Assembly: GCA_000165345.1 (NCBI GenBank)
Contig: CM000430.1
Span: 640,001-704,000, forward strand
Reading direction: 5' to 3'
DNA: 64,000 nt
Notes under the pieces: generated by a model
What the model was told of the DNA's origin: nothing
Seen by the model: the letters and a program-made list of their open reading frames with translations, nothing else
Database searches by the model: none
Program-made: the position numbers and the translations under genes
In this document: positions 8,934 through 9,709 of the stretch, piece by piece
Layout: each line of letters opens with the position of its first letter
Position numbering within the stretch: the stretch's first letter is position 1

Positions 8934-8939
8934 TTTGAG

Positions 8940-9700
8940 TGTATTTGATAAATCATCAATATTGGGAGTATATGTTATGTTAACTGGAGGTATTTGTTGT
9001 TTTTGCTGTAGTAGTATTTGATTTTGTAGTATTAGTAGATGTTGTTGCTGGCTTTGTAGTGGTGGTGGTAGTAGTAGTAGTAGTTGTTGTCGTCGTAGTA
9101 GTAGATGTTGTTGGCTTTATGGTGGTAGTAGTAGTAGTAGTAGTCGTTGTAGTAGTAGTAGTAGTAGTAGTAGTAGTAGATGTTGTTGGCTTTGTGGTGG
9201 TGGTGGTGGAAGTAGTAGTAGTAGTAGTTGGCTTTGTAGTAGTGGTGGAAGTGGTAGTAGTTCTGCAGTAGTAGTAGTAGTAGTATTAATAGTAGTAGTA
9301 GTAGCTGTCGTTGTTGAGGTAGAAGTAGAACTTATATCTACAGCAGTAGCAGTAGTAGTAGTAGTTGTGTATGTTGGTGTCTGTGAGAAGTACTAGCAGT
9401 AGAAGTAGAGGTTGTAGTCGTAGTAGTAGTAGTAGTAGTAGTAGTAGTAGTAGTTGTAGTAGTAGTTGTTGTAGTAGTAGTAAATAGTAGTAGCAGTCGT
9501 AGTAGTAGTAGTAGTAGTAGTAGTAGTAGTAGTAGCAGTAGTAGTAGTAGTAGTCGTTGTGGTGGTGGTAGTAGTAGTAGTAGTAGTAGTAGTAGTTGTA
9601 GTAGTAGTAGTAGTAGTAGTAGTAGTAGTAGTAGTAGTAGTCTTTATGGTGGTAGTAGGAGGTGAGAAGTTAGGTGGTAGTTGGGGTTTAGAAAGTAAAT
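8940..9700 (-). repeat. About 770 bp (GTA)n-derived trinucleotide repeat which, on the minus strand, encodes poly-threonine as nGT triplets (ACT/ACA/ACC/ACG). It is mucin-domain coding sequence, but is not in any reported ORF because of frame shifts within the repeat and lack of an ATG.
   Basis: Variants of the unit occur almost exclusively at the position corresponding to the Thr wobble base (agt, tgt, ggt, cgt on the plus strand). Flanking ORFs on the same strand are mucin-like. Confidence 0.75.
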
Positions 9701-9709
9701 AGTTTGGTT

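Follow-up and report, generated by a model that had tools for sequence, protein, structure and literature searches.

Introduction

Mucin-like glycoproteins are a familiar component of the Cryptosporidium secretome. GP900 (cgd7_4020), gp40/15 (gp60) and Muc25/MSC6-7 (cgd6_40) are secretory proteins of this kind with Ser/Thr-rich domains, whose O-glycosylation is documented by the binding of lectins and antibodies directed at alpha-GalNAc (PMC9973360). Muc25, which is highly polymorphic, serves as a subtyping marker, and a content of 20-55% Ser/Thr/Pro is taken as the criterion for a mucin-type glycoprotein domain in this genus (PMC12407990). The 2004 C. parvum reference contains many regions that were collapsed in assembly, and repeats, gaps and frameshifts yield split genes in fragmented Cryptosporidium assemblies (PMC8744675).

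The locus described here lies in a 64,000-nt stretch of Cryptosporidium parvum chromosome 2 (GCA_000165345.1, contig CM000430.1, positions 640,001 to 704,000 of the forward strand), hereafter the window. The gene resembles the known Cryptosporidium mucins in its signal peptide, its Thr-rich domain and its length variation between isolates, a likeness of features. An initial annotation placed a Thr-coding repeat tract between two mucin-like genes; these are very probably both ends of one mucin-like gene, 7674..12043, which looks split through a garbled and shortened repeat in this copy of the genome. Neither a legacy cgd2_ identifier nor a paper on this gene was found in the literature, nor were experimental localisation or glycosylation data. 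Two candidate identifiers were discarded: cgd2_1520 belongs to a CorA transporter, and the peptide of cgd2_1590, an Apple/EGF protein, does not occur in the window.

Threonine codons in the repeat tract

The ORF list of the window holds no minus-strand ORF over 8934..9709, with ORFs of 777 aa (counted from the first ATG) and 419 aa on its two sides, the former closed by a stop at 9710, so the tract does lie outside every ORF as initially described. At 9056..9641, Tandem Repeats Finder located a GTA array of period 3 (194.7 copies, 77% matches). Its minus-strand reading is (ACT)n interspersed with AAG CCA (Lys-Pro) and similar codons; the G+C content of the window is 31% overall. The Thr frame was tracked along the minus strand by three-frame translation combined with a sliding count of ACN codons, and the successive runs are listed in Table 1. 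The translation bore out that the frame changes register within the tract and ends at a TAA. The Cys-rich ORF downstream is in frame 2, and the Thr run just before it is in frame 1.

Within the local Thr frames of the window, ACN accounts for 166 of 213 codons (~78%). Codons that are one position off ACT depart from it at codon positions 1, 2 and 3 in 10, 7 and 53 cases (chi-square p = 5e-13), and the corresponding single-position departures in the intact IOWA-ATCC copy number 19, 14 and 134. Variation is therefore concentrated at the wobble base in both copies, as had been proposed for the window, and neither behaves as a neutral non-coding microsatellite, in which variants would be unbiased by codon phase.

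Table 1. Features of the mucin-like locus in window coordinates, with the strand and the basis of each assignment
Feature	Position	Strand	Basis
Probable whole mucin-like glycoprotein gene, as it spans in the window	7674..12043	-	single ORF in intact assemblies
N-terminal piece, 777 aa: signal-peptide-like start MIINKKISVFLLLIIIVIFSF, Asn/Ser/Thr-rich N-domain, first poly-Thr run	9710..12043	-	ORF list, alignment
Tract as initially reported: codes for Thr-rich mucin-domain units of the TTTTKPTTS type in hopping frames	8934..9709	-	repeat scan, frame and codon counts
C-terminal part, 419-aa "ORF": short Thr patch, 20-Cys conserved domain, hydrophobic tail SLLIIFLNMMILYTNA	7674..8933	-	ORF list, alignments
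Perfect (GTA)24.7 = (ACT)24-25, opens the mucin domain and shares the frame of the upstream ORF	9846..9919	-	100% matches
Thr frame 0	>=9850	-	ACN count
Degenerate/garbled stretch	9850..9670	-	ACN count
Thr frame 2	9670..9495	-	ACN count
Thr frame 0	9490..9405	-	ACN count
Thr frame 2	9400..9270	-	ACN count
Thr frame 1, closed by TAA 8982..8980	9265..8983	-	ACN count
Garbled and collapsed stretch holding all differences from IOWA-ATCC	8975..9933	-	alignment, anchors
Spurious stop TAA 8982..8980	8980..8990	-	alignment

A continuous gene in other C. parvum assemblies

In the long-read chromosome 2 of IOWA-ATCC (CP044421.1, locus L001), the upstream ATG and the ATG of the Cys-rich ORF share one frame that is open throughout. 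A single ORF at L001 2635..7260 (4,626 nt) encodes 1,541 aa with no internal stop, so that in an independent accurate assembly the frame runs unbroken between the ATG upstream and the stop downstream. CP029781.1 (L007) is identical to IOWA-ATCC base for base across all 4,626 nt. Its neighbouring gene departs from both the window and ATCC by N80H and one TPAP unit, so that CP029781.1 is not a copy of the ATCC record. The gene is annotated as one in CP029781.1, with 1,519 aa counted from the second Met (MDDLLL), and as one in CM109962.1 (L009), with 1,624 aa and a mucin domain that is longer by 103 residues.

All three assemblies contain the same gene as the window, with an N part (690 aa in ATCC) and a C part (435 aa) identical to those of the window and with matching flanking genes. 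The difference lies in the mucin domain, which is intact and in frame in CP029781.1, CM109962.1 and CP044421.1, in contrast to the 992 nt out of frame in the window. Measured from anchor to anchor, the domain spans 1,248 nt in ATCC and L007 and 1,557 nt in L009, each a multiple of three, and the anticipated length polymorphism of the tract is thus seen within C. parvum and again among C. canis proteins of 1,353, 1,392 and 1,425 aa.

The 1,541-aa ORF in two assemblies with identical DNA, the annotations as one gene (1,519 aa and 1,624 aa), and the colinearity of both window ORFs with one C. canis protein all favour the initial proposal of one larger mucin gene that combines a Thr domain with a C-terminal Cys domain. 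The related suspicion that ORF calling mis-models the locus was likewise justified: one gene appears as ORFs of 777 aa and 419 aa with an orphan tract between them. Under the single-gene model, both halves would be transcribed on a single mRNA.

Protein architecture

The 1,541-aa protein consists, in order, of a signal peptide, an N-domain, a 416-aa Thr-rich mucin domain, a 20-Cys C-domain and a hydrophobic tail. On hydropathy only, the start MIINKKISVFLLLIIIVIFSF shows 15-aa Kyte-Doolittle windows above 2.0 at residues 1-10, with a maximum of 3.27. Across the whole protein, the only 15-aa windows above 2.0 are these and one at residue 1523. The N part (690 aa) is rich in Asn, Ser and Thr and carries 21 N-x-S/T sequons. 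The mucin domain is 68% Thr and 81% Ser, Thr and Pro, and its TTTTKPTTS-type units are arranged around a unique 86-aa island. Both features expected of a mucin-like protein, a signal peptide and an extended Ser/Thr/Pro-rich repeat domain, are found in this chain. The C part (435 aa) has 20 Cys, most of them invariant across species, and ends in the tail ...KSNSLPIFSNYHILQSLLIIFLNMMILYTNA, which accounts for the one hydrophobic window at residue 1523 of 1,541 and is conserved in C. canis. As initially remarked, the 419-aa Cys ORF lacks a signal peptide of its own, having no hydrophobic segment at its N-terminus. The last ~45 residues of the 777-aa ORF and its stop at 9710 are artefactual, with divergence from ATCC beginning at 9933.

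A Pfam scan of both halves matched no family. The AlphaFold2 model of the 419-aa C-part, built on a 6-sequence alignment, is unusable (mean pLDDT 38.7, pTM 0.32); within this model of mean pLDDT 38.7, the tail forms a helix at 398-418 with a block pLDDT of 72-77. The C-terminal tail may act as a GPI signal or anchor the protein in the membrane. The composition of the Thr domain suggests that it is O-glycosylated, and, by analogy with the known mucins, it may serve as a stalk with dense O-GalNAc glycosylation, on which folded domains are presented or held apart at the parasite surface or inside secretory organelles.

Two further in-frame trinucleotide arrays occur within the N-domain, namely (ACT)22, which is read as poly-Thr, and (AAT)14, read as poly-Asn, at window 11238..11303 and 11907..11949 (minus strand). 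These arrays could also vary in length between isolates.

Orthologues in other Cryptosporidium species

Three isolates of C. canis have single annotated proteins (P0008, P0009 and P0010). The 777-aa N-ORF aligns with residues 7-594 of P0010 at 37% identity (E = 2e-79) and the 419-aa Cys ORF with residues 1000-1417 at 68% identity, with a T/S-rich repeat between both matches. The C. canis orthologues share with the C. parvum protein a signal-peptide-like start, the N-domain, T/S repeats, the Cys domain and the hydrophobic tail. They differ from it in the repeat units, which are of the TTTEATSTTTTSRS type in C. canis and TTTTKPTTS in C. parvum, and their length differs among the three isolates. 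P0008, P0009 and P0010 carry the source name 'putative transcriptional repressor EZH1 domain-containing protein'. Judged by sequence features, this name is without support, given the signal peptide, the mucin repeats, the Cys-rich ectodomain and the lack of a Pfam match for the C. parvum halves.

An exhaustive HMMER search with the Cys-rich C-domain against 1.84 billion representatives returned three strong relatives (P0009, P0011 and P0002), which are Cryptosporidium or Cryptosporidium-like; the further matches were a weak fragment, P0012, and an LRR protein judged spurious. No credible match outside this small group was found in this search. One of the relatives is a single 874-aa chain with a signal peptide, an N-region and the Cys domain. 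A word-indexed search with the Cys ORF missed the full-length C. canis proteins, which were found with the 1,541-aa query and with exhaustive HMMER. Since they surfaced with these other searches, the absence of a match in the word-indexed search is uninformative.

In other assemblies the frame of the Cys ORF is also open upstream. In C. hominis it runs on through Thr-rich sequence without a stop for 903 nt (TU502_2012) and 984 nt (UKH1), and in C. ubiquitum it stays open for 135 nt, in each case up to the contig end. The C. parvum contigs from Logan are open upstream into Thr codons, likewise up to the contig end. The C. tyzzeri assembly has an N gap inside the tract and one frame on both sides of it, and the 419-aa ORF is 98% identical to a C. 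tyzzeri protein. The chromosome-level assembly of C. meleagridis (CM077708.1) is frame-broken inside the tract, with both flanks in one frame. This break could reflect a long-read indel error, or real divergence or decay. The interior of the C. meleagridis tract (L005 6130..6780) is rich in G+C and Ala codons.

Contigs end inside the Thr repeat at L003 1..905, L004 1..986, L006 1..135, L010 and L011. The short-read assemblies concerned come from C. hominis, from C. ubiquitum and from read sets of C. parvum, the last covering at least 18 Logan samples. The repeat is therefore a breakpoint of short-read assemblies, and public data contain the locus in systematically fragmented form.

Origin of the broken frame

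The window and IOWA-ATCC show zero differences over ~12 kb of coding and intergenic flanks, and more than 200 differences that all fall in 8975..9933. Between shared unique anchors at window 9973 and 8981 the window has 992 nt, leaving a remainder of 2 on division by three; it is 256 nt shorter than ATCC, and this shortfall puts the two flanks out of frame with each other. A non-repeat island of 258 nt in the mucin domain (86 aa; L001 5149..5406) shows 95.3% identity when ATCC is set against two independent assemblies of C. hominis, whereas ATCC and the window agree at only 74.7% over the same island, with 11 gap columns. Because the ATCC island is nearer to that of another species than to that of the window, whose flanks are identical to ATCC, the text of the window is erroneous and not an allele. 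In our judgement, window 9640..9860 resembles degraded base calls of the ATCC sequence, with homopolymer runs and scattered indels.

The junction to the Cys-rich part can be followed base by base. The window reads ACC TCC AGT TAA, compared with ACT TCT ACT AAC (T S T N) in the other copies, so that its TAA arises from one extra base near 8984 and three substitutions. Seven of the 11 fetched loci (L001, L002 and L007-L011) contain the in-frame junction, two of them being Logan read-set assemblies that represent at least 18 more, and the TAA junction of the window is absent from all 11. Frame breaks reproducible in independent sequence of the same organism were thus not found.

The initial annotation had left two branches open for the loss of continuity, and assembly or sequencing error is the one that fits the confinement of the differences to 8975..9933 and the identity of the island (95% versus 75%). 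The repeat-rich middle would have been mis-read and collapsed in this assembly, presumably the older Sanger-era one of Iowa II, leaving it 256 nt short with many substitutions and single-base indels. The frame would then appear to change five times and to meet false stops at 9710 and 8980, and ORF calling would break the gene up into 777 aa, a Thr-coding tract that looks "intergenic", and 419 aa counted from an internal Met. An intron bridging the frames was rejected: the intact assemblies require none, and the frame changes of the window coincide with alignment indels.

The other branch holds that the frameshifts are real in this isolate and that the gene has decayed through repeat slippage, leaving either a pseudogene or two fragments with independent expression. 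The five frame changes and two stops are indeed present in the window, trinucleotide and homopolymer-rich repeats are prone to slippage, and the C. meleagridis assembly is likewise broken in the tract. Nevertheless, no mutational process within a strain lineage is expected to place over 200 differences in the tract beside ~12 kb of flanks that are 100% identical, nor to leave a non-repeat island at 95% between species and at 75% between the window and ATCC. The in-frame junction is present in all other C. parvum copies, more than 18 read-set assemblies among them, and the TAA of the window recurs in 0 of 11 loci. Real decay is accordingly considered improbable. A variant of it, in which the broken version is a genuine minority allele and the repeat generates frame-shifted, truncated forms for antigenic or phase variation, is rated lower still; if true, it would yield a secreted N-half without the Cys-rich anchor half.

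Programmed or phase-variable frameshifting, in which the repeat toggles expression of the C-terminal domain as in contingency loci, could draw on the variation in domain length between isolates (1,248 and 1,557 nt in C. parvum; chains of 1,353-1,425 aa in C. canis). Yet every length variant except that of the window keeps the frame (a multiple of three), and slippage of a 3-nt repeat unit preserves it. The changes in the window include scattered substitutions and indels in unique sequence, as opposed to changes in unit number, and we give this explanation hardly any credence. Equally little can be said for a pair of distinct genes on either side of a neutral, non-coding microsatellite. This arrangement is implied by the ORF calls and by the annotations of Iowa II and ATCC, and the halves do have separate entries (419 aa; 752 aa in ATCC; 778 aa in C. 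tyzzeri; 820 aa in C. meleagridis). Against it stand the wobble-biased variation (10/7/53, p = 5e-13), the continuous ORF in two assemblies, the orthologues that are single chains, and the 419-aa piece, which lacks a signal peptide while carrying a 20-Cys domain indicative of a secretory protein.

Public records and annotation

The 419-aa ORF is identical to EAK88702.1/XP_626507.1 (C. parvum Iowa II), QOY42917.1 (IOWA-ATCC) and WRK31104.1, and C. parvum entries also match the neighbouring genes exactly (592 aa; UFD1-family, 658 aa). In GenBank, IOWA-ATCC is still annotated with two genes of 752 aa and 419 aa. Its 752-aa product (L001 2635..4890) has no stop codon, the frame reads through, and the product ends close to the point of divergence between the old sequence and the new one, which suggests that the 752-aa model was taken over from the older assembly and not re-predicted. 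The WRK31104.1 record also has 419 aa and presumably belongs to the BGF assembly; if so, a transfer by Liftoff would explain the inherited 419-aa model. The annotation of BGF was transferred from ATCC by Liftoff (PMC12179316). An exact look-up in the protein collection found neither the upstream ORF (with three alternative starts), nor the 752-aa ATCC product, nor the 1,541-aa ORF. Public records already contain the corrected DNA and two models with a single gene, and the split is an artefact of assembly and annotation, not new biology.

A secreted-looking protein of 1,040 aa is encoded nearby at window 1572..4694 (minus strand) and contains a (TPAP)n linker. It has 1,036 aa in CP029781.1, CM109962.1 and the Logan contigs; in CP029781.1, the only copy aligned, it has one TPAP unit fewer together with the N80H exchange, a second small length polymorphism at the locus.

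Implications

Users of this version of chromosome 2, or of the 419-aa and 752/777-aa entries, would be handling two fragments of one protein. This affects antigen arrays, orthology and dN/dS screens and designs for CRISPR tagging, and secretome lists based on signal peptides would miss the 419-aa piece. The mucin is of a kind already well known in Cryptosporidium, and the practical value of the result is an annotation fix. The intact gene is that of an uncharacterised mucin, restricted to the genus and polymorphic in length, whose C-terminal 20-Cys domain is strongly conserved. Considering these sequence features, its product is predicted to be a secreted, Cryptosporidium-restricted mucin-like glycoprotein and is a reasonable candidate for an adhesin and for a typing marker.
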